The position numbers and the translations under genes were made by a program. Of a DNA stretch of 64,000 nt, positions 17,203 to 29,582 are shown in pieces. A model generated the notes under the pieces. The model ran no database searches. It saw only the letters and a list, made by a program, of their open reading frames with translations, and was not told where the DNA came from. Each line of letters starts with the position of its first letter. The first letter of the stretch is position 1. Location: assembly GCA_016932695.1 (NCBI GenBank), contig JAFGCH010000081.1, positions 15,404-79,403 on the forward strand, written 5' to 3'. Origin of the DNA: Acidimicrobiia bacterium. GTDB taxonomy: Bacteria; Actinomycetota; Acidimicrobiia; Spongiisociales; UBA11373.

Positions 17203-17687
17203 AGCACCACCTCGTCGGCCACTTCCTCGGGGCGTCGGTTCGCAGTGGCCACCTGCCGGTGGGCGGCTCCCCGATAGGCCGCTTCCCGGGCGGCCGCGAG
17301 ACTCCGCAAGCTGGGCCGCCCCTCGCCGGCCAGCAGGGGACGGCCGCCGCCGTCGCCCACGCGTTCCTCCAGGACCTCCGGCGGCGCCTCGAGCCAGACC
17401 ACCAGGCCGGTGCGCCGCAGCAGCGCTACGTTCTCCGGCGCCACCACGATCCCACCCCCGCAGGCCACCACCGCCGCGCTCCCGGCCGTTTCCACCAACG
17501 CCGCCGCCTCCCGCCGGCGGAAGCCCGCCTCCCCTTCTGTGGCGAATATCTCCGGCACAGAACGGCCGGCGGCCCCCGCCACCACCTCGTCCAGGTCCAC
17601 GAACGGCCTCCCCAAACGGGCCGCTACCAGCGGGCCGATCCGGGTCTTCCCCGCTCCCATCATTCCCACCAGCCAGAGAGTCGCCAT
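17181..17687 (-). CDS. aroK: Shikimate kinase
   Basis: LVGMMGAGKT.IG..LA..L...FVDLD is the P-loop NMP-kinase fold, and the position between aroC and aroB is conserved. Confidence 0.85.
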   Translation of the reverse strand: MATLWLVGMMGAGKTRIGPLVAARLGRPFVDLDEVVAGAAGRSVPEIFATEGEAGFRRREAAALVETAGSAAVVACGGGIVVAPENVALLRRTGLVVWLEAPPEVLEERVGDGGGRPLLAGEGRPSLRSLAAAREAAYRGAAHRQVATANRRPEEVADEVVLWWKSCE

Positions 17688-18835
17688 CAGAACCCGGCCA
17701 GGCGCTGCCGGTAGGCCTCTACCGCCCGAGCGAAGTCCGCGGCGGTATCTGCCCCGAACATGCGAGACATCTCGACGGCCAGCACCCAGGCCACCATGTG
17801 CTCGGCCACCACTGCGGCCGCGGGCACGGCGCAGACGTCGGAACGCTGCTCCGCGGCCGCTGCGGCCTGCTTGGTCACCACGTCCACACTGGTCACCGGC
17901 CGCCGCAGCGAAGACAGCGGCTTCATCGCCCCCCGCAGACGGATGACCTGGCCGTTGCTCATGCCCCCTTCGATGCCTCCCGCACGGTTGGTGGGCCGCT
18001 CGAACCCGCTCGCGCCGTAGGTGATCGCATCGTGGGCTGCGGAGCCCCGCCGGCCCGCCGCAGCAAACCCGTCGCCGATCTCTACCCCCTTGATTCCGGG
18101 GATCGACATCACCGCCGCGGCCAGGGCGGCATCCAGCCGCCGATCCCAGTGGACGTGGCTGCCCACCCCGGGCGGCACCCCGTAGGCCAGCACCTCCACC
18201 ACCCCGCCCAGAGTGTCGCCCTCACGCCGGGCCGCATCGATGGCGGCGGCCATGGCGGTCGCCGCCTGCGGATCCAAGCAGCGCACACCGGAACGATCCA
18301 CCTTGCCCCGGTCGCCGGCGCCGGGGACCCGCCCGTCGGCCGCTACCTCCCCGATGCCCACCACGTGGCCGATCACCCCCACCCCCGCCTCCGCCAGCAG
18401 TCGCTCGGCCAGGGCCCCCGCTACGGCGCGAGCCGCCGTCTCCCGCCCGGAGGCCCGCTCCAGCACGTCGCGGGCGTCGTGGGTGTCGTACTTGAGCATC
18501 CCGGCCAGGTCGGCATGCCCCGGCCGCGGCCCCGTGAGGGGCGCCGGCACGGGGCCGGGGACCGAGGACATGGCCGCCTCCCAACGGGGCCACTCCGTGT
18601 TGCGCACCACCACCGCCACCGGCCCCCCAAGGGTGCGACCCAGCCGCACCCCGCCCAGGATCTCGACCTCGTCGCGCTCCACCCGCATGCGCGGGCCGCG
18701 GCCGCGGCCCCGCCGCCTACGGGCGAGTTCTGCCGACACCATCTCGCCGGTCACCTCGAGGCCGGCCGGGAGCCCCTCCACGATGGCGACCAGGCCCGGG
18801 CCGTGTGACTCACCCGCAGTCAGGAAGCGCAGCAC
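17687..18835 (-). CDS. aroC: Chorismate synthase
   Basis: MLRFLTAGESHGPGLVAIVEGLPAG...GGRSSARETAARVAAG-like core; the full length aligns to AroC. Confidence 0.9.
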   Translation of the reverse strand: MLRFLTAGESHGPGLVAIVEGLPAGLEVTGEMVSAELARRRRGRGRGPRMRVERDEVEILGGVRLGRTLGGPVAVVVRNTEWPRWEAAMSSVPGPVPAPLTGPRPGHADLAGMLKYDTHDARDVLERASGRETAARAVAGALAERLLAEAGVGVIGHVVGIGEVAADGRVPGAGDRGKVDRSGVRCLDPQAATAMAAAIDAARREGDTLGGVVEVLAYGVPPGVGSHVHWDRRLDAALAAAVMSIPGIKGVEIGDGFAAAGRRGSAAHDAITYGASGFERPTNRAGGIEGGMSNGQVIRLRGAMKPLSSLRRPVTSVDVVTKQAAAAAEQRSDVCAVPAAAVVAEHMVAWVLAVEMSRMFGADTAADFARAVEAYRQRLAGF

Positions 18836-18866
18836 ACCGGCGATGGTACCCCCGCGCCGGGGAGCA

Positions 18867-19508
18867 CTACTTGATGATCGACTGCCCCACCGCCAGGGTG
18901 AACACGCTGTCGCGGTACATGAACACTCCGCTGCTGGTGGCCAGGCTGATCACCTTGAAGTCGGTGGCGAAGGTGTCCCCGACGCCGACGGTGTAGGTCT
19001 GGCCGTCCACGGTCAGCACCGCCTTCTTCACTCCGCCTTCGTCGCGGATCTCCAAGAGCGACACCCGCTTCCCGCTCGGCTGGTCGCCGGTGGTGCTGGT
19101 GGTGCTGCCTCCGGAGGTCGTGGAGGTAGAGGTGGAGCTGGTGGAGGACGTGGTGCCGCCGCCGGTCGTGCTGCTGGTGGAACCGCCGGTGGTACTCGTA
19201 GTGGAACCATCCCCGCCGGTCGTCGTGGAGCCGTCGGGGAGGGTGGTGCTCGTCGGGCTGGTGACCAGAGGAGCGAAGGGATCGCGCGGTTGAGCGACGC
19301 GGAAGCCCCCCGCCGCCGGAATCGTACCGGCGGAGCCGCTCGGGCCCGCCGTCCCCGGGTCCGGGGCCCCGGGCAGACGCCCGTCTCCTCCCAGGGAAAG
19401 CACTCCCGAGGAGGCCATCAACCACACCGAGGTCCCCGCCGTTCCCACCAGCAGCACGGCCACCAGGATCGCTACGAAAGTGCGCCGCAAGGTCCCGCGT
19501 CCCATGTC
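18867..19508 (-). CDS. PilP-like pilus assembly protein: N-terminal signal/anchor, RDPF motif, Ser/Thr/Gly-rich linker and C-terminal beta domain; the real start is the internal MGRGTLRR
   Basis: MGRGTLRRTFVAILVAVLLVG (TM), QPRDPFAPL (PilP-type motif), about 70 aa of S/T/G repeats, then a conserved-looking about 70-aa C-terminal domain. It sits immediately downstream of pilO. Confidence 0.5.
   Translation of the reverse strand, partial: DMGRGTLRRTFVAILVAVLLVGTAGTSVWLMASSGVLSLGGDGRLPGAPDPGTAGPSGSAGTIPAAGGFRVAQPRDPFAPLVTSPTSTTLPDGSTTTGGDGSTTSTTGGSTSSTTGGGTTSSTSSTSTSTTSGGSTTSTTGDQPSGKRVSLLEIRDEGGVKKAVLTVDGQTYTVGVGDTFATDFKVISLATSSGVFMYRDSVFTLAVGQSIIK
19090..19290 (-). repeat. Low-complexity coding repeat (Ser/Thr/Gly-rich linker of the PilP-like protein)
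   Basis: Degenerate repeats of ggt/gga/gtg...acc triplets on the plus strand encode TTSTTGGSTSSTTGGG... in the minus frame. Confidence 0.5.
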
Positions 19509-20187
19509 AGGCCTCCGCGCTCGGGCCGGTGGTCGGCGGCACGGTGGAAGGGACGATCGTCGTCTGCGCCTCCGGCGCCATCTCTTGCTCGCCCGTGCCC
19601 TCACCGGTGTTGCCGGCGCCCCCGTCGTCCGGGAGGGGTTCCAGCGGCACCAGGTCGGCGAGGGTGTACAGCCGCAAGCTGAGGCTCGCCGACAGCGTGG
19701 TCGCCCCGGTCTCATCCTGGCCCGACGACACGGCGATGGCGTCCACCCGCACCAGCCGATCCATGTCCATGATCCCGAAGAGGAAGCCCAGCACCTCGAA
19801 GAAGTCCCCGTCGATGGTGGTAGCCACCGTGATCTGCCGCAGCTCGGAACCGGTGATCGCCACCGGCATGGCCGGCGCCAGGTTCAATAGCTGCACTCCG
19901 GTGGTGTCACAGAGGGCATACACGTCGTCGATGAACTCATCGAGTCGGGGTTGCGCCGGGATCAGGCTCTCCATCTGCCCGATGCCGGCTAGGTACTCGA
20001 CTTCGGCGTCCCGGATGGCCTGCAGCTGGGTCACCTGGGCCCGCAGCGCGGCTTCCTGCTGCTGCGCCGCGTCCAGGTCGTCGCGCGCCTCGGCGATGCG
20101 GCCGTTGCGCGGCGAGATGAGGAAGAACCACCAGGCCACCGCCAGCACCAGCGCCAAAACCAAGGTGAGGATCACCCAGCGGCGCAT
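19507..20187 (-). CDS. pilO: Type IV pilus assembly protein PilO
   Basis: N-terminal TM (WVILTLVLALVLAVAWWFF), coiled-coil (LDAAQQQEAALRAQVTQLQAI), then a PilO-type globular domain. The pilM-pilN-pilO order matches. Confidence 0.65.
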   Translation of the reverse strand: MRRWVILTLVLALVLAVAWWFFLISPRNGRIAEARDDLDAAQQQEAALRAQVTQLQAIRDAEVEYLAGIGQMESLIPAQPRLDEFIDDVYALCDTTGVQLLNLAPAMPVAITGSELRQITVATTIDGDFFEVLGFLFGIMDMDRLVRVDAIAVSSGQDETGATTLSASLSLRLYTLADLVPLEPLPDDGGAGNTGEGTGEQEMAPEAQTTIVPSTVPPTTGPSAEA

Positions 20188-20188
20188 G

Positions 20189-20803
20189 TCAGGGCACCTC
20201 CGGGATCAGCTCCTGGGCGCGGTCGGTGACCGCCCCCGCAGTGAGCGCCGCCGAGGAGCTGAAGTTGACCACCACCTCGTCGCCGATGGCGCTCTCCGAA
20301 GCCATACTCACCCAGGGCCCGGTGACACCGGCGAACCCGCCCGCGCCCAGGGTGCGCAGCCATTCCGAAACGTCCGGGAACTCGAAGGCCACTCCGGTGA
20401 AGGCGACCTGGCCCACCACCCCGCCGATCTGGCCCTCGATGATGCTCCCGTTGAACGACTCCATCCACACCCGCTCGGGAAGAAGCCGGGAGAGGTCGTT
20501 GAGGAAGATGCCCCAGTCGACGTCGTTGGCCAGCGCTTCCTGCACCAAGCCCGCCTTCGAGCGAAACTCCGCCTGCAATGCGGCGGCCTCCGCCAGTGAG
20601 GCCACCTCCTGCTCCAGGCCGGCGTTGACCTCCTGCTGCAGCTCGACGTCGGCCCGCGCTGCCGAAACACGGGTGTTCCAGTAGAACACCCCGGCCACCA
20701 GCACGAGCACGTACGCGATGGCGGCGAGTATCAACAGCCCAATGAGCCGCCGACGGGTTCTCTCTTCGGCGACCTCGGGGGGAAGCAGGTTGATGGGGCG
20801 CAC
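20189..20803 (-). CDS. pilN: Type IV pilus assembly protein PilN
   Basis: MRPINLLPPEV...RR then a TM segment, which is the hallmark PilN N-terminus (INLLP). It is about 200 aa and lies between pilM and pilO. Confidence 0.7.
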   Translation of the reverse strand: MRPINLLPPEVAEERTRRRLIGLLILAAIAYVLVLVAGVFYWNTRVSAARADVELQQEVNAGLEQEVASLAEAAALQAEFRSKAGLVQEALANDVDWGIFLNDLSRLLPERVWMESFNGSIIEGQIGGVVGQVAFTGVAFEFPDVSEWLRTLGAGGFAGVTGPWVSMASESAIGDEVVVNFSSSAALTAGAVTDRAQELIPEVP

Positions 20804-20806
20804 GCG

Positions 20807-21919
20807 TCAGTCCTCCCGAGCCACGTGGGCGAAGCGATTGCCGGGTGGGACCACGTAGCTCCCCCACAACGCCAGGCCCACCGCCGCCGGCAGCACGGGC
20901 TGCAGGTCGAGCAGCTGCGATTCGGTCATGTGCACCCGACCCACACTGACGTGGTCCAGGACCCGGACCGGCTCCACGCGCGTGCCCAGCGCCCGCGCCA
21001 CCCGGTTGGCCAGATGGGGAAGCCGCGCCCCGTTCCCCGACACCAGCAGGCGCTCCAGCGAATGCTCCCCCGCCTGGGTCAGGTAGTAGTTCACCGAGCC
21101 GCGGATCTCCTCGATCAGGCCGTCGGCCGTGCGGGTGAGCAGCCGGCGCAGCGCCGCTTGCTCGTCGTCGCCTTCGGGCAGGCCGGAGGGCACCACTCCC
21201 GCCACTCGCTTCTTCTCCTCGGCGTCCTCCCGACTGAGCGACGCCCCGGCCATGAGCGCTTCGGTGAACTGGTTTCCCCCGGTGGGCAGGATCCGGACGA
21301 AGCGGGTGATACCGCCGCGCACGACGGCGATCTGGGACATAGATGCCCCGATATCCAGGATTCCTTGGGGCCCGTCACCCCCCAGGGTGAGATCCGCCCC
21401 GAACGCCGCCCGCACTAAGCCGAAGGTCTGCAGGTCGATCGAGAGCACTTGCAGCCCGACCTTGCGCGCCACCCCCACCAGGGACTCCACCATCTCGCGC
21501 TGGGCCGCCACCACCAGTATGGAAAGCATGAGGTCGCCGTCGGGAGTGCCGAACTCCTCGAGCGGCACGTAGTCGAGCAGCGCCTCCTCGACCGGGATCG
21601 GGATGGCGTCCTGGACCTGGTACGGCAGGGCCTCGAGCAGCTCCTCCTCCTCCAGGTGAGGCACGTCGACCTGCCGGACGATCACCCGCTGGTTGGCGAT
21701 GCCCACCACAACCCGCTTGCGCGGCAGGCGATGGCGCTTCCACAGCGCGCTCACTGCCTCGGTAACGGCGCCCTGATCGACGACGTCGCCGCCCTGGACC
21801 GCTCCCGGCGGCAGCGGCATCTCGACGAACCGGCGCAGCACCGGAGTGGGCTTGCCGGTTTCGACTACGGCGGCCCGCACCGCCTCCGAGCCAATGTCGA
21901 GGCCGACCGCGATCGGCAT
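20807..21919 (-). CDS. pilM: Type IV pilus assembly ATPase-like protein PilM (actin fold); the real start is the internal MPIAVGLDIG
   Basis: VGLDIGSEAVRAAVV..., ...ILDIGASMSQIAVV.GG, N.YL and LLVSGNGARLP are PilM/FtsA-like motifs. It is followed by pilN. Confidence 0.8.
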   Translation of the reverse strand: MPIAVGLDIGSEAVRAAVVETGKPTPVLRRFVEMPLPPGAVQGGDVVDQGAVTEAVSALWKRHRLPRKRVVVGIANQRVIVRQVDVPHLEEEELLEALPYQVQDAIPIPVEEALLDYVPLEEFGTPDGDLMLSILVVAAQREMVESLVGVARKVGLQVLSIDLQTFGLVRAAFGADLTLGGDGPQGILDIGASMSQIAVVRGGITRFVRILPTGGNQFTEALMAGASLSREDAEEKKRVAGVVPSGLPEGDDEQAALRRLLTRTADGLIEEIRGSVNYYLTQAGEHSLERLLVSGNGARLPHLANRVARALGTRVEPVRVLDHVSVGRVHMTESQLLDLQPVLPAAVGLALWGSYVVPPGNRFAHVARED

Positions 21920-22080
21920 CACTCCTCCGTTGTGGCCGCCCGGGGCGGCTCCTCGCTCGATCACACCGTGGTAACTACACGGGTGTCAGGCAAAAGGCTA
22001 CACAACGGACCGCGCGCCTCCAAGGATCTGGGCTGATCCTGCCGAGCGCGGGCCGCGCGAGGACCGCGCGCCTAAGGTGG

Positions 22081-22851
22081 TCAGCCCAGGTACCAGCCGG
22101 CGATGGTCTCCCCCCAAGCCAGGGCCAGCGCGGCGCCGACGACCATAGCCGGGCCGAAAGGGATCGCATCCTTGCGCCCGGCCCGCCGGGTGACGAGCAG
22201 GCCCGCCGCCACCAGCCCTCCTACGGCAAAGGCGGCGAACGCCCCCACCGCCAGCACGCCCCAGGATCGATAGGCCAGCACCGCCCCCAGGAGCAGGCCC
22301 AGTTTCACGTCGCCGAACCCGAAGCCGCCCCGCGCCGCCAGGGCCACCAGGAAGAGCAGGGCGAAGTACGCCGCCGCTCCCCCGGCGGAGCGCGCCCAGG
22401 CCATGGGTTCTCCGTCCAGGAAAGCCGCCGCCCCCAGCAGCACCAGCGTCACCGCCGCCCCCGGCAGCAGGATGCGATCGGGGATCCGCTTGACGTCGAG
22501 ATCCGTCAGCGTCAGGGCGATGGCGACTGCGGCCGCCCACCAAAACGCCGGCAAGGCCCACGACGGCCCGAGCAGAAGGGCCAGGCCGGCGAAGGCAGCC
22601 CCCGTGCCGGCTTCCACGAACGGATAGCGCACCGAGATGCCGCTCCCGCAATCGCGGCACCGGCCTCGCAGCAAGAGCCAGGACAGCACCGGGATGTTGT
22701 CCCGGGCCCGGATCTCATGGCCGCACGCCGGGCAAGCCGACCGGGGGCGCACCACCGACTTCCGCAGGGGGACGCGATAGGCGACCACGTTGACGAACGA
22801 CCCGGCCACCAGGCCGAGCACCGCACCCACGATTGCCAGCCAACCTGTCAC
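22081..22851 (-). CDS. pilD: Prepilin peptidase (A24 family)
   Basis: The Cys-rich N-terminal zinc module (CPACG...CRDCG) follows N-terminal TMs, with multi-pass membrane helices and conserved Asp positions. It aligns to PilD/TadV. Confidence 0.85.
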   Translation of the reverse strand: MTGWLAIVGAVLGLVAGSFVNVVAYRVPLRKSVVRPRSACPACGHEIRARDNIPVLSWLLLRGRCRDCGSGISVRYPFVEAGTGAAFAGLALLLGPSWALPAFWWAAAVAIALTLTDLDVKRIPDRILLPGAAVTLVLLGAAAFLDGEPMAWARSAGGAAAYFALLFLVALAARGGFGFGDVKLGLLLGAVLAYRSWGVLAVGAFAAFAVGGLVAAGLLVTRRAGRKDAIPFGPAMVVGAALALAWGETIAGWYLG

Positions 22852-22964
22852 CGCCGGTCACCTCCTGCTCCGCTCGCCGGCTCGAGGCCCCCGTCTCACA
22901 GCATCGGACGTGCGAAGGCGAAGGTGAAGGGGTTGATGCCCGGCGGCCTGCCACGCCGGCCGGG

Positions 22965-23432
22965 TCAGAAGCCGCCCTGGTGGTACCCGGCGGGAATCAC
23001 CGCCGGGCAGTCGGCACCGGAGAGGTCCGTGGCCCCGTAGTGAGTTCCCAGTGCGGCGCTGTCCCAAATGGAGAAGACCCGTCCCGAAGCCGAGTCTCGC
23101 GTCAGGCACACGACCTGCGGGTCGGCGTCGTTCAGGTCCACGTACACCCCATCGGCCGGGTCCAGGCTCAGCCAGGAACCCGGGCGCACCGCCCGCAGAA
23201 CACCCCAATCGGCGGTGTAGGCCCCCTCCTCCAGCCACACCATCTTCTCCGCCAGCAGGATGTTGCGCAGATCGGTATGGGCGGCTCGGTCCTGGGCCGC
23301 GTGGCGAACGCCGAGGAAGTAGGGAATGGCCACGGCCAGCAGCACCGCCAGGATGGCCGCCACCATCATCAGCTCGATCAGGGTGAACCCCACATCACCC
23401 CTCGGCCGGTGTTTCACGAGACCCCTCCACAA
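22965..23432 (-). CDS. Type IV pilin (paralog 1)
   Basis: Class III signal ...RGDVG/FTLIELMMVAAILAVLLAVAIP, and a C-terminal disulfide-bonded region (C...C). Confidence 0.8.
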   Translation of the reverse strand: MWRGLVKHRPRGDVGFTLIELMMVAAILAVLLAVAIPYFLGVRHAAQDRAAHTDLRNILLAEKMVWLEEGAYTADWGVLRAVRPGSWLSLDPADGVYVDLNDADPQVVCLTRDSASGRVFSIWDSAALGTHYGATDLSGADCPAVIPAGYHQGGF

Positions 23433-23439
23433 GCGGGCT

Positions 23440-23465
23440 GGGGGCGGGCCGTCGGCCCGCCCCCA
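23440..23465 (-). terminator. Perfect 11-bp GC hairpin (GGGGGCGGGCC gac GGCCCGCCCCC) immediately 3' of pilin paralog 2
   Basis: Inverted repeat seen directly in the sequence. There is no U-tract, which is common for high-GC terminators. Confidence 0.45.
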
Positions 23466-23490
23466 GCAACTCGGTAGACGTTGGGTGTGC

Positions 23491-23955
23491 TTACCAGCCG
23501 CCCTGGACGTAGCCGGCCGGGGCAGCCGCCGGGCAGTCCGCGGCCGACAGGTCGGTGGCGCCGTAGAAGGTGCCCGCCGTCGCGCTCTCCCAGATGGAGA
23601 AGGTGCTCCCCGAATCGGAATCGCGCACCAGGCAGACGATGTCCGCGCTGGCGGCGTTCAGGTCCAGGAAGACACCGTCCGCCGGGTCGGCGGCGATCAC
23701 CGCGTTCGGCTCCAGAGCAGTGATGTCGCCCGCGGTCTGGGTGTAGTCGCCGTCTTCCAGCCAGAAGGCCTTCTCGGCGAGCAGCACGTTGCGGACCTCG
23801 CTCTGGGCCGACCGGTCCTGAGCGGACTTGCGGAAGCCGAGGAACGAAGGGATGGCAATGGCGATGAGGACTGCAATGATCATCACCACGACCATGAGCT
23901 CGATGAGCGTGAAGCCCTCGCTCCCGGCCAGCCGCTTGCGGATGGCCTTGGTCAT
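23491..23955 (-). CDS. Type IV pilin (paralog 2, candidate major pilin)
   Basis: MTKAIRKRLAGSEG/FTLIELMVVVMIIAVLIAIAIP, a strong SD (GAGGAGG) 8 nt upstream of the ATG, and a stable terminator hairpin downstream. Confidence 0.8.
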   Translation of the reverse strand: MTKAIRKRLAGSEGFTLIELMVVVMIIAVLIAIAIPSFLGFRKSAQDRSAQSEVRNVLLAEKAFWLEDGDYTQTAGDITALEPNAVIAADPADGVFLDLNAASADIVCLVRDSDSGSTFSIWESATAGTFYGATDLSAADCPAAAPAGYVQGGW

Positions 23956-24066
23956 CTTGGAAACCTCCTCAGGTTTCTCGGTCCCGGACCGGGGGTTCCC
24001 GATCCGCAGGCTTTATCGGCCGCGCCGCGACGCTTCTTGAGCGGGTTGCGCACCCCCGAACGCGCC

Positions 24067-24091
24067 GCAGCCGGGCTCCCGGCCCGGCTGC
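24067..24091 (-). terminator. GC-rich hairpin (GCAGCCGGGC ...GCCCGGCUGC) 3' of pilC and 5' of the pilin gene promoter region
   Basis: Inverted repeat seen in the sequence, with no U-tract. Confidence 0.35.
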
Positions 24092-24110
24092 GGTTGCCTC
24101 GATGCTCCGC

Positions 24111-25343
24111 TTACCGCTGGATCAGGTTGGCGATGCTGAACATCGGCAGATACAGCGAGATGAGGATGCCGCCCACGCCCACGCCCATCACCACGATCAG
24201 GAAGGGTTCGATGAGGCTGGTGAGGGCGTTCACCGAGTCGTCGACCTCCTGGTCGTAGAAGTCCGCCACCTTGGCCAGCATGGCGTCGAGGGCGCCAGTC
24301 TCCTCCCCCACCGCCATCATGTGGGTCACCATCGGGGGGAAGACCTCATGGCGCGCCAGAGGGCCGGCCAGCGACTCGCCTCGCTTCACCGACTCCTGCA
24401 CGTCCGCCAGGGCCTCGGAGACCACCGCGTTGCCCGCGGTGTCCGCCACGATGTCCAGCGCCTGGAGCACCGGCACCCCGGTCCGGCTCAACACCGACAT
24501 GGTGCGGGCGAAGCGGCTGATGGCGATCTTCTGCACCAGCTTGCCGAAGACGGGGAAGCGCAGCTTCAGGCGATCCCACTTGGCGCGACCCGCAGGAGTG
24601 CGGATCCAACGCTTGAAGCCCACGACCGTGCCGATGGTCAGCAACGCCAGCAGCCACCAGAACTTGGTCAGCATCCCCGAGAGGGTCATGAGCATCTGCG
24701 TCGGCGCCGGCAGGGTGCCCCCCAACTCGTCGTACATCCTCTTGAAGATCGGCACGATGAAAAGCAGCATCGCGCTCAGGATGAGCACGAGCAGCCCGAG
24801 GACCACCACCGGGTAGGCCATAGCCGACTTCACCTTGGAGCGCAGCCGCACCCCGGACTCCAGGGTGTCCGCCAGCCGGATCAGAGTCTCGTCGAGGGCG
24901 CCGCCCACCTCCCCCGCCTGCACCATGGCCACGTAGAGATGCCCGAAGACCTTCGGGTGGCTGGCCAGGCTGGCCGACAGACTGGACCCCTGCTCCACCC
25001 GGGTGCGGACGTCGCCGATCACCCCGGCCAGCGTGGGATTGCGGCTCTGCTCCTGCAGGACGGTGAGGGCGCGCACCAGGGTCAGCCCGGAGTTCACCAT
25101 CGTGGCCAGCTGACGGCTGAAGACCGCGACCTCCTTGGCCTTGACCTTCTTCTTCATCCCGGGGAGCTTGACCTCCTTGTCGAGGGTGCCCACCCGGCGC
25201 TCGGCGATCTTGAGGGGCACGAAGCCCTTGTCACGGAGGGTCTTGGCCACCGCAGCCGACGAGGCGGCCTCCATCTGGCCCGTCTGGACGCCGCCCGCCC
25301 GGTCGCGCACCCTGTACTCGAAGGTCATCGTGGGATTGCTCAC
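24111..25343 (-). CDS. pilC: Type IV pilus inner-membrane platform protein PilC (GspF family)
   Basis: 410 aa with two GspF repeats and 3-4 TMs; ...VNALTSLIEPFLIVVMGVGVGGILISLYLPMF... is the typical PilC C-terminus. Confidence 0.85.
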   Translation of the reverse strand: MSNPTMTFEYRVRDRAGGVQTGQMEAASSAAVAKTLRDKGFVPLKIAERRVGTLDKEVKLPGMKKKVKAKEVAVFSRQLATMVNSGLTLVRALTVLQEQSRNPTLAGVIGDVRTRVEQGSSLSASLASHPKVFGHLYVAMVQAGEVGGALDETLIRLADTLESGVRLRSKVKSAMAYPVVVLGLLVLILSAMLLFIVPIFKRMYDELGGTLPAPTQMLMTLSGMLTKFWWLLALLTIGTVVGFKRWIRTPAGRAKWDRLKLRFPVFGKLVQKIAISRFARTMSVLSRTGVPVLQALDIVADTAGNAVVSEALADVQESVKRGESLAGPLARHEVFPPMVTHMMAVGEETGALDAMLAKVADFYDQEVDDSVNALTSLIEPFLIVVMGVGVGGILISLYLPMFSIANLIQR

Positions 25344-26962
25344 AGCCTCCCCCTCCCCAGGAGATCCATCAGTTCTTCGGCATTCGAGGCCCGTTCTGTA
25401 GCCGCGGCCACCGAGATCTGGCCCGCCCGGACCAGATGGGCCAGCGACTGCTCCATGGTGTGCATGCCGTGCTTGCCCCCGGCCTGCATCGCGGTGCGGA
25501 TCTGGTGCACCTTGCCCTCCCGTATCAGGTTTCGCACCGCCGGGGTGGCCACCAGCACCTCCACCGCGGCCACTCGTCCCTTGCCGTTCATAGTCGGCAG
25601 CAGCTGCTGGCAGACGACACCCTGCAGCGACCCGGCCAGCTGCACCCGCACCTGCTGCTGCTGGTGGGAGGGGAACACATCGATCACCCGCTGCACCGTG
25701 CCCGGGGCGTCCTGGGTGTGCAGGGTGGCGAAGACCAGATGCCCGGTTTCAGCGGCGGTCAGGGCAGTGGCCATGGTCTCGAGGTCGCGCAGCTCGCCCA
25801 CCAGAATGACGTCGGGGTCCTGACGGAGGGCGTGCTTGAGGGCGCTGGCGAAACTCACCGTGTCCGAACCCACCTCGCGCTGGTTCACCACGGCCATCTT
25901 GTGGCGGTGCATGTACTCGATGGGATCCTCCACCGTCATCACGTGCACCGCTCGGGTCCGGTTGATCAGGTCGATCAGGGAAGCCAGCGTGGTGGACTTG
26001 CCCTGACCCGTGGCCCCCGTCACCAGCACCAGGCCCCGGCTCATGCGAGTGAACTCCGCCACCACCGGGGGCATACCCAGCTCTTCGAGAGACATGATGT
26101 GCTCCGGGAGGGCTCGCAGCACCGCCCCGACGGACCCGCGCTGGAAGTAGACGTTGACCCGGAAGCGGCCCCGCCCCGCCACCGGGTGGGAGCAGTCGAG
26201 TTCGCGCTTCTCCTCGAGTTCCTCACGCTGGCGTCCGCTCAAGATGCCGTAGATCAGGGTGCGGAGCGTGCCGGGCATCAGCCGCGCGTACCCCTCGATC
26301 GGCTGGATTTCGCCGTCGATCCGTCGCAACGGCGGTGACCCCGCGGTCAGGTGGAGATCAGAGGAGCCCGAGTCGAGCACCAGCTCGAGCAGCTGGTTCA
26401 GGTGGTATCCCGGGTCCTCTCCCTCAACCGGGGCATCGCCCAGCCGCAGTTCCGGGCTCTCCGAGCCGCGCCGGGCCGGACTGCCGTTGGCCGCCGCCGG
26501 CCGGACCGCCGAGCTCCCCGGCCCGTAGACCCGGGCCAGGACGGCCTCTAGGCCCGCCCGGGGTGCCAGCGCGGGCACCACCCGGCACCGGCTCAGCTTC
26601 TCCACCAGAGACAGCTTGGCCCGGTTCATGGGATCGGCCAGGGCGACCACCAGGCCGTCGGGCCCCTCGCGCCGCAGCGGCAGAGCTTGCTGCCCGGTGG
26701 CGGTGGCCGGGTCGAGGCGACCGAGCGCCTCGGCATCCGGCTCCCATCCGTTCGTAGGGTCGAAGTACTCGATACCCAAGCGCTCGGCGGCCACCCGAAG
26801 CACTTCCTCCGGGGGTACGCGTCCCTCCCCGAGCAGCAACCGCGTGGGGTGGGCCCCGGCGTCCTGCGCCCGAGCCACGATGTGCTCCAGGGCCGATGGG
26901 GCGAGCACGCCCCGGTCCACCAGGAGCTGCCCCAACTGCCGGAAGGCCTTCGGATCGGGCAT
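25340..26962 (-). CDS. pilT: PilT-type twitching/retraction ATPase with an extra N-terminal T2SE_N/MshEN-like domain; the real start is the internal MPDPKAF, and its ATG overlaps the pilB stop
   Basis: PilT core: DLHLTAGSPPLRRIDGE, RFRVNVYFQRGSVGAVLRALP, Walker A GATGQGKSTT, Walker B ILVGELRD and AVRNLIREGK, with no tetracysteine. The N-terminal about 190 aa resemble the GspE N-domain (LGQLLVDRGVL...ALEHIV..AQ). Confidence 0.8.
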   Translation of the reverse strand: MPDPKAFRQLGQLLVDRGVLAPSALEHIVARAQDAGAHPTRLLLGEGRVPPEEVLRVAAERLGIEYFDPTNGWEPDAEALGRLDPATATGQQALPLRREGPDGLVVALADPMNRAKLSLVEKLSRCRVVPALAPRAGLEAVLARVYGPGSSAVRPAAANGSPARRGSESPELRLGDAPVEGEDPGYHLNQLLELVLDSGSSDLHLTAGSPPLRRIDGEIQPIEGYARLMPGTLRTLIYGILSGRQREELEEKRELDCSHPVAGRGRFRVNVYFQRGSVGAVLRALPEHIMSLEELGMPPVVAEFTRMSRGLVLVTGATGQGKSTTLASLIDLINRTRAVHVMTVEDPIEYMHRHKMAVVNQREVGSDTVSFASALKHALRQDPDVILVGELRDLETMATALTAAETGHLVFATLHTQDAPGTVQRVIDVFPSHQQQQVRVQLAGSLQGVVCQQLLPTMNGKGRVAAVEVLVATPAVRNLIREGKVHQIRTAMQAGGKHGMHTMEQSLAHLVRAGQISVAAATERASNAEELMDLLGRGRL

Positions 26963-26964
26963 GC

Positions 26965-28635
26965 TCACACCACCACCCTCAGCACCTCTTCGAGCGTGGT
27001 CAGCCCGAGGCGCACCTTCTCCTGCCCGTCCCGGCGCAACGTGCGCATGCCCTGCTCGATCGCCACCTTCTTGATCTCGTCCGAGGGCCGGCGTTCCACC
27101 GCCATGCGCTGGATCTCCTCGGTGACGGTGAGCACCTCGTTGATGGACAGCCGCCCGCGGTAGCCGGTGCCCGAGCACACCTTGCAGCCCACCGCCTCGA
27201 AGATGGTGGCCGGCTCCCCTTCCGGCGGCAGCCCGATCTGCACCCGGACCTCCGAGGAGGCCTCGTGGGGGCGCCGGCAACGCTGGCAGAGCTTGCGCGC
27301 CAGCCGCTGCGCCACGATGCAGTCGAGGGCGGAGCTCACCAGGTACGCCTCCACCCCCATGTCGACCAGGCGGTTGATGGAAGAGGCCGCGTCGTTGGTG
27401 TGCAGCGTGGTGAGCACCAGGTGCCCGGTGAGGGCGGCTTCCACCGCGGTCTTGGCCGTCTCGGTGTCTCGTACCTCACCCACCAGCACGATGTCGGGAT
27501 CCGAGCGCAGAATCGACTTGAGGGCGGTGGCGAAGAGCAGGCCCGCCTTGCGGTTCACCTGCACCTGGGTGACCCCCGCCAGGCGGTACTCCACCGGGTC
27601 TTCCACCGTGATGATGTTGCGATCCGGCTTGTTGAGCACGTTGAGCGCGGCGTACAGGGTGGTGGTCTTGCCGGACCCCGTCGGCCCGGTGACCAGGATC
27701 GCCCCGTACGGCTTGGCCAGGGACTGGGAGAACCTGTCGAGCGCGTGGGGCATGAAGCCGAGGTCCGACAGCTGCAGGACCGCGTCGTCCTTGTCGAGGA
27801 CCCGGATGACCACCTTCTCCCCGTAGATGGTGGGCAGCGTCGCCACCCGAAGGTCGATCGGCCGGTTGTTCACCCGCAGGCCCACCCGGCCGTCCTGGGG
27901 CACCCGCCGCTCGGCGATGTCGAGGTCGGCCATGATCTTCACCCGGCTCACCACCGCTCCCGCCACCGAGCGCGGTGTGGTCATCACTTCGTGCAGCACC
28001 CCGTCGATACGAAACCTCACCCGCAGGTCCTTCTCCCCGGGTTCCAGGTGCAGGTCCGAAGCCCGTTCGTTGACCGCCCGGGTGATCAGCGTGTTGATCA
28101 GCTTGACCACGGGCGCCTCTTCGACGGCGGCCTCGATCTTGGACAGGTCTTCCACCGCCTCCCCGTCGGCCACCATGTCCGCCAAGTCGGCCACCGACTC
28201 GTCGTAGCGCGCCAGACGCCGGATGGCATCCAGGATGTCGCTCCGGGTGGCGATCCGGGGCGAGATGCGCATTCCCGTGATGGCGCGCAAATCGTCGACC
28301 ACCAGCACGTTGCTGGGGTCGGCCATGGCCACTACCAGGCGATCGTTCTCGAAACCGATGGGGATCACCACGTACCGGCGGGCCAGCGACTCCGGCAGCA
28401 GGGCCGCGGCGGCCGGGTCGATGGTGCTCTCGGCCAGGTTCACATACTCCAGGCCGGAGCGACGAGCCAGCACCCGCACGATGTCCGCTTCGGCGATGAT
28501 GTGCTCCTCGACCAGGATGCGGGTCAGGGGCAGGCCCGATTCGGCCTGTACCGCCGTGGCCCGTTCCAGGTCGCGTCGGGTCAGCAGGCCTTCATCGAGC
28601 AGCAACGACCCGATGTGCTCGGCATCTGCAGGCAC
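26965..28635 (-). CDS. pilB: Type IV pilus assembly (extension) ATPase PilB/GspE family
   Basis: N-terminal T2SE_N domain, Walker A GPTGSGKTTTLYA, and the tetracysteine CQRCRRP...CKVCSGTG. It is 556 aa. Confidence 0.9.
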   Translation of the reverse strand: MPADAEHIGSLLLDEGLLTRRDLERATAVQAESGLPLTRILVEEHIIAEADIVRVLARRSGLEYVNLAESTIDPAAAALLPESLARRYVVIPIGFENDRLVVAMADPSNVLVVDDLRAITGMRISPRIATRSDILDAIRRLARYDESVADLADMVADGEAVEDLSKIEAAVEEAPVVKLINTLITRAVNERASDLHLEPGEKDLRVRFRIDGVLHEVMTTPRSVAGAVVSRVKIMADLDIAERRVPQDGRVGLRVNNRPIDLRVATLPTIYGEKVVIRVLDKDDAVLQLSDLGFMPHALDRFSQSLAKPYGAILVTGPTGSGKTTTLYAALNVLNKPDRNIITVEDPVEYRLAGVTQVQVNRKAGLLFATALKSILRSDPDIVLVGEVRDTETAKTAVEAALTGHLVLTTLHTNDAASSINRLVDMGVEAYLVSSALDCIVAQRLARKLCQRCRRPHEASSEVRVQIGLPPEGEPATIFEAVGCKVCSGTGYRGRLSINEVLTVTEEIQRMAVERRPSDEIKKVAIEQGMRTLRRDGQEKVRLGLTTLEEVLRVVV

Positions 28636-28808: not shown

Positions 28809-29582
28809 CTATTCGCCCGTCGCCGCCCGGCGCATCACCTCAATGGGCGCCGGCAGCCCCGTCCACCGCGTGAAGGAGAGGGCGCCTTGCGCCACCAGGT
28901 GATCCCACCCATCCGCTACCGGCAGCCCCCTCCCCCGGGCCAGGAGCACCGCCGGGCTGCCGCCCGGACGGCAGGGCAGGTCGTAGAGGCCGGCGCTCTC
29001 TTCCACCACTCCCGCGGGCAGGCTCTCCCCCTCGCGGCCCAGCGGGGTCGAATTCACCACCACCGCCCCCGGCAGCGGATCACCCCACGGGACCTCCTCG
29101 GCCTCGATCCCCAGCCGCCCGGCGAGCGCCGCCCCCGCCCCGGCGCGGCGGGCGGCGATGGCGAGGCGAGCGCCCCCTAAGGCGGCCAGGACGGCCGCGG
29201 CCGCACCGCCGGCCCCCAGCACCAGGACCGGGCTCCCGGCGGGTAGCCCGGCCGCAGCCCAGACCCCGGGAAGGGCGCCGGCATCGGTGTTGTCCCCCAC
29301 CACCTCCCCTTCCATCGCCCACAGAGTGTTCACCGCGCCGGCCCGGTGGGCCAGCGGCAGCAGCCGGTCGGCGGCCGCGGCGGCGACCCTCTTGTGCGGC
29401 ATGGTCACGTTCGCCCCGTGCAGCGCCCCCGACCGGATCTCGGCACACGCCCGGTAGACCCCCGCGGCGTCCACACGACGCGCCTCATACAGGCCCTCGA
29501 TGCCGACGGCTGCCAAGGCGGCGTTGTGCATGGCGGGCGAGGTCGAGTGGCCGACCGGGTCGCCCAGCAGCACGAGCCTCAC
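28809..29582 (-). CDS. aroE: Shikimate dehydrogenase
   Basis: VLLGDPVGHSTSPAMHNAAL...NVTMPHK...NTDA.G..GAGGAA are AroE motifs. Confidence 0.85.
   Translation of the reverse strand: MRLVLLGDPVGHSTSPAMHNAALAAVGIEGLYEARRVDAAGVYRACAEIRSGALHGANVTMPHKRVAAAAADRLLPLAHRAGAVNTLWAMEGEVVGDNTDAGALPGVWAAAGLPAGSPVLVLGAGGAAAAVLAALGGARLAIAARRAGAGAALAGRLGIEAEEVPWGDPLPGAVVVNSTPLGREGESLPAGVVEESAGLYDLPCRPGGSPAVLLARGRGLPVADGWDHLVAQGALSFTRWTGLPAPIEVMRRAATGE

Follow-up and report, generated by a model that had tools for sequence, protein, structure and literature searches.

The 64,000-nt stretch of an Acidimicrobiia bacterium genome analysed here (contig JAFGCH010000081.1; hereafter the window, with a G+C content of about 70% throughout) carries on its minus strand an operon of the order pilB-pilT-pilC-pilA-pilA-pilD-pilM-pilN-pilO (19507-28635), which is a monoderm-style type IVa pilus set. 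Its second gene, pilT, encodes a protein of 540 amino acids (aa) in which a PilT motor core is preceded by a complete MshEN/GSPII/N1D domain, and a whole clade of proteins from Acidimicrobiia and other Actinomycetota has kept this fusion. A first-pass annotation, made from the letters alone, had described the gene as a PilT-type ATPase joined to an N-terminal T2SE_N/MshEN-like domain; its coordinates for the gene are exact, and every peptide it quoted is present in the translation. The domain-architecture check that it proposed found both the MshEN (PF05157) and the T2SSE (PF00437) domains of Pfam in the pilT product.

From its sequence, the C-terminal part (residues 187-540) is a complete, standard PilT with intact catalytic boxes, as had been claimed. 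The PilT/PilU family model TIGR01420 (cut-off 319.1) aligns to residues 188-530 at 480.6 bits, over positions 2-343 of the 343 in the model, and it also matches all 67 clade members, while the PilB model TIGR02538 gives 169.3 bits against its cut-off of 675.65 and the GspE model gives 147 bits, both far under their cut-offs. Besides the Walker A box and the PilT signature AVRNLIRE, which is of the AIRNLIRE type, we located an Asp box (EDPIE at 345), a Walker B box (DPDVILVGE at 382) and a His box (TGHLV at 406). Most residues of these boxes are invariant within the family: G316, T318, G319, G321 and K322 of Walker A are invariant and S323 nearly so; in the signature R477 and R481 are invariant and N478, I480 and E482 nearly so. 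The Zn tetracysteine is absent, again as claimed: the product has just three scattered cysteines (126, 257 and 451) and no CxxC pair. An AlphaFold model of the full-length protein, built from 67 sequences, has a mean predicted local distance difference test score (pLDDT) of 89.7, and its top solved match in Foldseek is G. metallireducens PilT4 (54% identity; template modelling (TM) score, normalised to the target, 0.93). Other matches are G. sulfurreducens PilT-4, T. thermophilus PilT2 and P. aeruginosa PilT (both at 48%) and PilU (41%); PilB structures appear at just 25-26% identity.

Residues 1-148 are a complete MshEN/GSPII/N1D domain, which bears out the resemblance to GspE/PilB N-domains noted in the first-pass annotation. 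Pfam MshEN scores 48.9 bits over residues 63-150 (cut-off 23.1). In a phmmer search of PDB sequences the domain matched T. thermophilus PilF at E 2.5e-18, with all three GSPII domains of that protein aligned, and further matches were to the isolated GSPII-B domain and to V. cholerae MshE-N (5htl, E 5.6e-5). Identity with the N-domain of the neighbouring PilB is 32%. Modelled alone, the domain gave a pLDDT of 94.0 and a predicted TM score of 0.83, with a four-helix bundle (helices 4-16, 22-35, 39-45 and 51-62) followed by an alpha/beta subdomain (63-146), so that the suggested structure prediction of the N-region returned the MshEN fold. The top 20 PDB matches of this model in Foldseek are exclusively MshE-N, PilF GSPII-A and GSPII-B, X. 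citri PilB-N and XpsE-N, aligned over about 137-147 columns with TM scores of 0.5-0.7; the first is 5htl, which with 9g1w, 8pdk, 7lkm and 2d27 makes up the best matches, at TM scores of about 0.6-0.7 over 137-140 columns. Fold matches also include 4pht and 2bh1, two GspE-GspL structures. Between domain and core lies a linker of variable length, rich in Ala, Pro, Gly and Ser and disordered in the model (pLDDT below 50 for residues 153-178), in which residues 159-170 align to columns that are mostly gaps in the homologues.

The N-region is translated from the ATG at 26962. The 66 homologues, at 55-88% identity, align from residue 1 onward, with L55, A88, P111 and Y146 invariant, and their N-termini sit seven to eight residues ahead of the RQLGQ sequence, exactly as this ATG does. 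The fraction of G or C at third codon positions (GC3) is 0.865 over codons 1-111, close to that of the core (0.884) and of pilB (0.919), and it drops to 0.46 in the same frame just upstream of the ATG. Two findings had been named as telling against the fusion, a true start at a downstream Met near the PilT core and a lack of detectable T2SE_N similarity, and neither was obtained. Leu or Phe occupies position 112 in 58 of the 67 sequences, which means that Met112 is no conserved start, and starting there would split a confidently modelled domain; the similarity, for its part, is picked up by Pfam, phmmer and Foldseek alike. An identical sequence (100%) is nevertheless deposited as P0010, a 429-aa PilT from an Acidimicrobiia metagenome-assembled genome (MAG) beginning at Met112 (MNRAKLSL). 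This choice of start, which affects window positions 26629-26962, cuts the MshEN domain in two and masks the architecture, and censuses of deposited proteins will therefore undercount MshEN-PilT fusions.

The start codon had also been said to overlap the pilB stop, which is incorrect. The junction reads ...GTG GTG TGA GC ATG CCC..., with the pilB TGA at 26967-26965 and the pilT ATG at 26962-26960, leaving 2 nt between them. The sole start able to overlap the pilB stop is an in-frame GTG at 26968 (as GTGA), and the N-termini of the homologues favour the ATG over it. At the other end, the pilT TGA does overlap the GTG start of pilC, as GTGA. Of the translational coupling proposed for pilT, a close link to pilB and pilC within the operon is plausible; the literal overlap of pilB stop and pilT start falls away.

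The coordinates of pilT, its parts and its neighbours are collected in Table 1. The upstream pilB product scores 630.1 bits with TIGR02538, just under the 675.65 cut-off, and 87.1 bits with Pfam MshEN, and contains a CQRC...CKVC tetracysteine. The two adjacent pilins (155 and 154 aa) resemble each other both at the N-terminus (GFTLIELM...) and at the C-terminal end (...PAGY.QGG[FW]), so that a tandem duplication of their genes seems likely. Pfam matches nothing in the 201-aa open reading frame (ORF) at 18820-19425, directly downstream of pilO, which may encode another pilus component or be no gene at all. On one side the pilus operon is bounded by a gene at 28809..29582 that we take, from its translation, to be aroE, and on the opposite side by aroC; beyond these lie alaS, ruvX and mltG (again going by translations) on one side and aroB and an M24 peptidase gene on the other.

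Table 1. Parts of the N-extended pilT and genes of the surrounding operon (window coordinates)
Feature	Coordinates	Strand	Evidence or remark
N-extended pilT, 540 aa + TGA stop (25340-25342)	25340..26962	-	translation; TIGR01420; Pfam MshEN + T2SSE
MshEN/GSPII/N1D domain, residues 1-148	26519..26962	-	PF05157, PDB sequence matches, AlphaFold, Foldseek
Motif I equivalent, Q9-A32, QLGQLLVDRGVLAPSALEHIVARA	26867..26938	-	9/11 relaxed positions
Degenerate motif II equivalent, H38-R61, HPTRLLLGEGRVPPEEVLRVAAER	26780..26851	-	7/11 relaxed positions
Disordered Ala/Pro/Gly/Ser-rich linker, ~38 residues (149-186), length variable	26405..26518	-	
PilT motor core (N2D + C-terminal domain, CTD), residues 187-540	25343..26404	-	full-length TIGR01420 match; Foldseek
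Walker A, GATGQGKS, residues 316-323	25994..26017	-	
PilT signature, AVRNLIRE, residues 475-482	25517..25540	-	
pilB, extension ATPase, 556 aa	26965..28635	-	own MshEN domain + Zn tetracysteine; upstream of pilT
pilC, platform protein	24111..25343	-	Pfam T2SSF, 227.4 bits; downstream of pilT
Two pilin genes	23491-23955, 22965-23432	-	Pfam N_methyl
pilD	22081-22851	-	Pfam A24_N_bact/Peptidase_A24
pilM	20807-21964	-	Pfam PilM_2
pilN	20189-20803	-	Pfam PilN
pilO	19507-20187	-	Pfam PilO
aroC, chorismate synthase	17687-18835		bounds the pilus operon opposite the putative aroE

MshEN domains that bind cyclic di-GMP (c-di-GMP) do so through two 24-residue motifs of the form RLGxx(L/V/I)(L/V/I)xxG(L/V/I)(L/V/I)xxxxLxxxLxxQ separated by a 5-residue gap, for which the relaxed search pattern is [RKPN]hGxxhhxx[GAS]hhxxxxhxxxhxx[QNKRYWST] (Wang 2016; PMC5013675). 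The first-pass annotation held that one stretch of the N-domain fits this motif and that a looser second copy follows; the fit is imperfect and not supported. The 24 + 5 + 24 spacing is preserved, and the motif I equivalent retains L2, G3 (G11 of the protein), the hydrophobic pairs and G10, and departs from the relaxed pattern at position 1, where Q directly follows an Arg, and at position 24 (A32, which is conserved as Ala in 56 of the 67 members). A motif II equivalent does exist, but it fails at positions 1, 2 and 3, where HPT replaces RLG, and at position 11 (Arg); at position 3 (T40 here) not one of the 67 members has Gly, with A, V, L, P, T, I or M found instead. No clade member (0/67) satisfies both relaxed motifs, and in the N-domain the hydrophobic clusters are weakened at V29, V54 and A58. 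NF053729, the NCBIfam model of the c-di-GMP motif, gives the N-domain 16.9 bits, short of its cut-off of 38, while the neighbouring PilB scores 43-45.2 bits.

Precedents for loss of binding involve some of the same positions. In V. cholerae MshE the G11L and G40I variants bind c-di-GMP poorly, if at all, and in XpsE binding was lost through changes that include R38G and G40L (PMC5013675). In T. thermophilus PilF, GSPII-A does not bind c-di-GMP and GSPII-B and GSPII-C do; GSPII-B binds with a dissociation constant of 6 nM and does so without arginines (PMC11731258). GSPII-A combines a near-perfect motif I with a degenerate motif II that has SLA at positions 1-3. Counting relaxed positions was dropped as a test for binders, as it gives similar values for the binder GSPII-B (11 and 9) and the non-binder GSPII-A (10 and 9); the sole feature that separates the two is the Gly at position 3 of motif II. 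Canonical c-di-GMP binding has thus probably been lost in the N-domain of the pilT product. The neighbouring PilB (residues 1-57, window 28465-28635) has His at position 1 of motif I and Thr at position 3 of motif II; it deviates at both motifs, so that whether this PilB itself binds c-di-GMP is uncertain as well, although it passes NF053729.

The fusion is not peculiar to this genome. Among the best 120 relatives in the database, about 80 have a length of 513-543 aa and precomputed PF05157 and PF00437 domains, and the named ones come from Acidimicrobiia, Actinomycetota or 'Actinobacteria' MAGs. A scan of species-representative genomes with full alignment, which is a sample and not a census, yielded at least 80 PilT loci; the survey of N-extended PilT proteins that had been called for thus did find fusions, at 3 of 80 PilT loci among the matches listed, all in Actinomycetota (L001, an Actinomycetes MAG; L006, Egicoccus sp.; L017, an Acidimicrobiaceae MAG). 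Each has pilB upstream, and L006 has a pilC-sized ORF immediately downstream of the fusion gene. Many other actinobacteria among the matches listed, for example Cellulomonas, Leifsonia, Actinoplanes and Rubrobacter, have a short PilT. An exhaustive profile search of 1.84 billion cluster representatives (50% identity) gave about 15 fusions among the best 150 PilT-like proteins. Several of the fusions, from metagenomes, fall outside the query clade and exceed the cut-offs of TIGR01420 and of NF053729, the latter with 56.5 (P0144), 45.8 (P0132), 48.7 (P0124), 38.1 (P0154) and 100.2 bits (P0218); P0218, with 887 aa, carries two MshEN domains ahead of its PilT core. Gene contexts of such motif-intact fusions were examined for P0132 and P0144 only. 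Immediately upstream of P0132 (L081, 6001-7629) is a GAF-HD gene, and the vicinity also holds a sigma70-GGDEF gene and pilin genes; P0144 (L082, 6001-7596) has a GAF-GGDEF gene two genes off.

In a neighbour-joining tree of PilT cores, made without bootstraps, the 67 clade members form one pure group; in this rough tree L001 and L006 fall together and L017 separately, with 11 short actinobacterial PilTs within their common ancestor. The N-domain, which scores 47 bits against that of its own PilB, is about as similar to the N-domains of actinobacterial PilBs as to those of other PilTs. A recent duplication of the domain from the neighbouring pilB is thus unsupported, as its own PilB is no closer than other PilB or PilT N-domains.

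Several other proteins met in these searches deserve mention. P0185 (539 aa) scores 435 bits with the PilB model over its N-terminal 430 residues, 390 bits with the PilT model and 57.4 bits with the c-di-GMP motif model; it looked at first sight like a perfect-motif MshEN-PilT, but we set it aside, since its hybrid PilB/PilT scores and its 2.6-kb contig leave it as what may be either a natural hybrid or an assembly chimera. P0012 (527 aa) is 93% identical over 68% of the query, differing at residues ~108-170, which are Gly/Pro/Ala-rich in this protein; two frameshifts, or a fault of the assembly, in the N-domain and linker seem to be the cause. P0136, P0145, P0151, P0160 and P0174 (538-637 aa) have PilT cores with N-terminal extensions of 150-260 residues in which Pfam finds no domain, and these extensions could be new N-terminal modules or over-extended starts in high-GC genomes. 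Finally, P0023, P0029, P0030, P0032, P0121-P0128 and others, of 715-770 aa, have very high scores, match the PilT profile in two stretches and look like tandem double-PilT fusions; they include proteins of Chondromyces crocatus and other Myxococcota, and one representative has 1024 aa.

What, then, does an N1D do on a retraction-type motor? We lean, with fair but incomplete confidence, towards a PilT hexameric motor of the retraction type in which the tethered N1D is a docking or regulatory module and hardly a canonical c-di-GMP sensor. The pilT product would form the usual hexamer and retract pili, with the flexible linker tethering a PilB-like N1D to each intact PilT core, six to a hexamer. 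By analogy with PilB and GspE, where contact with a PilM/GspL-type stator has been proposed as the function of N1D (PMC11656802), these domains might contact the PilM/PilC platform, a PilM/GspL-type stator or another partner, and such docking could keep the retraction motor in place at the pilus machine or govern when it is exchanged with PilB. In favour of docking, the pilT operon also encodes PilM, PilN and PilO.

Several observations weigh against this reading. Even GSPII-B, whose binding is proven, departs from the relaxed motif II at two positions, and the adjacent PilB passes NF053729 despite its Thr at motif II position 3. NF053729 itself matches 36 of the 67 clade members at E <= 0.01 (best 4.5e-9), and the conserved R8-Q9-L10-G11-Q12 could be a surviving half-site. 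Moreover, the near-canonical motifs of the fusions outside the clade, together with the c-di-GMP genes next to the two whose contexts were examined, mean that the ancestral role of the fusion may have been c-di-GMP sensing. These points feed the strongest competing explanation, that the N-domain is a working receptor for c-di-GMP or another cyclic dinucleotide, bound in a non-canonical way, which switches pilus retraction directly. The full MshEN fold with its retained spacing, the surviving L2, G3, hydrophobic pairs and G10 of motif I, the dispensable arginines of GSPII-B (PMC11731258), the weak NF053729 match in about half of the clade, the sister lineages P0144, P0132, P0124 and P0218 that exceed the cut-off, and the GAF-HD and GAF-GGDEF genes beside P0132 and P0144 (two contexts only) are all consistent with it. 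We nevertheless regard a receptor as unlikely in the present protein, given the sub-threshold NF053729 score, the motif II Gly missing from all 67 members, the position-2 Leu replaced by Pro in this protein, the weakened cluster positions, and the binding-loss precedents of the G40I mutant, XpsE and GSPII-A. A regex search of the window's ORFs also found no GGDEF, EAL or HD-GYP signature, a weak negative in only 64 kb.

A broader version of the same idea is that MshEN-PilT fusions as a class drive retraction and sense c-di-GMP, or a different nucleotide, directly, the query clade doing so through a remodelled site made of R8-Q9-L10-G11 and the changed motif II; we consider this a long shot. 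If it were true, second-messenger control would act on pilus retraction itself, beyond extension alone, and the window gene would be a working and not a degenerate member of the class. Leaving the query clade aside, the motif-intact lineages, two of which are neighbours of GGDEF- or HD-type genes, suggest direct control of retraction by c-di-GMP in some bacteria.

It is improbable that the N-domain is a functionless leftover of recombination between pilB and pilT. Such an origin would suit the position of pilB directly upstream, the equal similarity of the domain to actinobacterial PilB N-domains and to other PilT N-domains, and the degraded ligand motif. The domain is, however, intact in homologues down to 55% identity, with invariant and near-invariant residues, a confidently predicted fold and an unbroken reading frame, and the drift of linker length while the domain holds its own points to purifying selection on the N-domain.

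Still less credible is a second motor of the extension type, that is, an ATPase of the PilT clade that gained an N1D. A 2024 review sets retraction ATPases apart from extension ATPases in part by the absence of N1D/GSPII (PMC11656802), by which rule this protein would count as an extension motor, and in V. cholerae PilT is reported to be capable of promoting MSHA pilus extension (PMC9815625). On the other hand, the core scores 480.6 bits as PilT and 169 as PilB, it has AVRNLIRE and no Zn tetracysteine, its closest solved relatives are retraction ATPases, and a PilB-type ATPase is already encoded next door. Last, the notion that the N-region is an untranslated leader, with the true start at a downstream Met as in the deposited P0010, is close to refuted by the modelled fold that a Met112 start would halve, the Leu or Phe at position 112, the coding-like GC3 of codons 1-111 and the matching N-termini of the homologues.

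With docking or regulation by a tethered N1D as the favoured function, the wider consequence concerns the domain itself. The N1D/GSPII domain cannot define an extension motor, because a conserved PilT clade carries it; it follows that N1D must have some role compatible with retraction. It might dock the motor to the PilM/PilC platform, take part in the exchange with PilB or bring the motor under the control of a ligand, and the clade amounts to a natural experiment on the job of a poorly understood domain.

Compared with the known retraction ATPases, the query is a PilT with an addition. Geobacter PilT4, P. aeruginosa PilT, T. thermophilus PilT2 and A. aeolicus PilT are 48-55% identical to it at TM scores of 0.9 and, like it, have the ATPase boxes, an AIRNLIRE-type motif, no Zn site and pilB/pilC neighbours. 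Their chains of about 320-360 residues match only residues ~187-540, whereas the query has 186 more, the N1D/MshEN domain and linker, and so does not conform to the two-domain (N2D + CTD) description of PilT. We found no description of a PilT carrying an N1D in the literature searched, a body of text that leaves out most papers in subscription journals; the pairing of MshEN and PilT domains is already visible in automated databases. With PilB, MshE and PilF the query shares the fold of the N-domain and its two-subdomain layout, but their motor is of the PilB type and that of the query is of the PilT type, without the Zn tetracysteine.

Among N-domains, PilF GSPII-A and that of XpsE resemble the query in the state of the ligand site: in them too motif I is recognisable while motif II is degenerate, position 3 being a residue other than Gly, and both (9g1w and 2d27) are among the top fold matches of the query domain. 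They belong to extension or secretion ATPases, however, and the motif I of the query additionally lacks the terminal Gln and has its Arg shifted by one. The receptors MshE-N and GSPII-B have the fold and the 24 + 5 + 24 spacing in common with the query, which, unlike them, is without the motif II RLG, both terminal Gln residues and part of the Leu clusters. Closest in architecture are P0144, P0132, P0124, P0154 and P0218, where MshEN precedes PilT in the same order but the c-di-GMP motif model is passed. Set beside these systems, the window gene is a well-supported architectural exception, and the motif-intact MshEN-PilT class is the more interesting lead.

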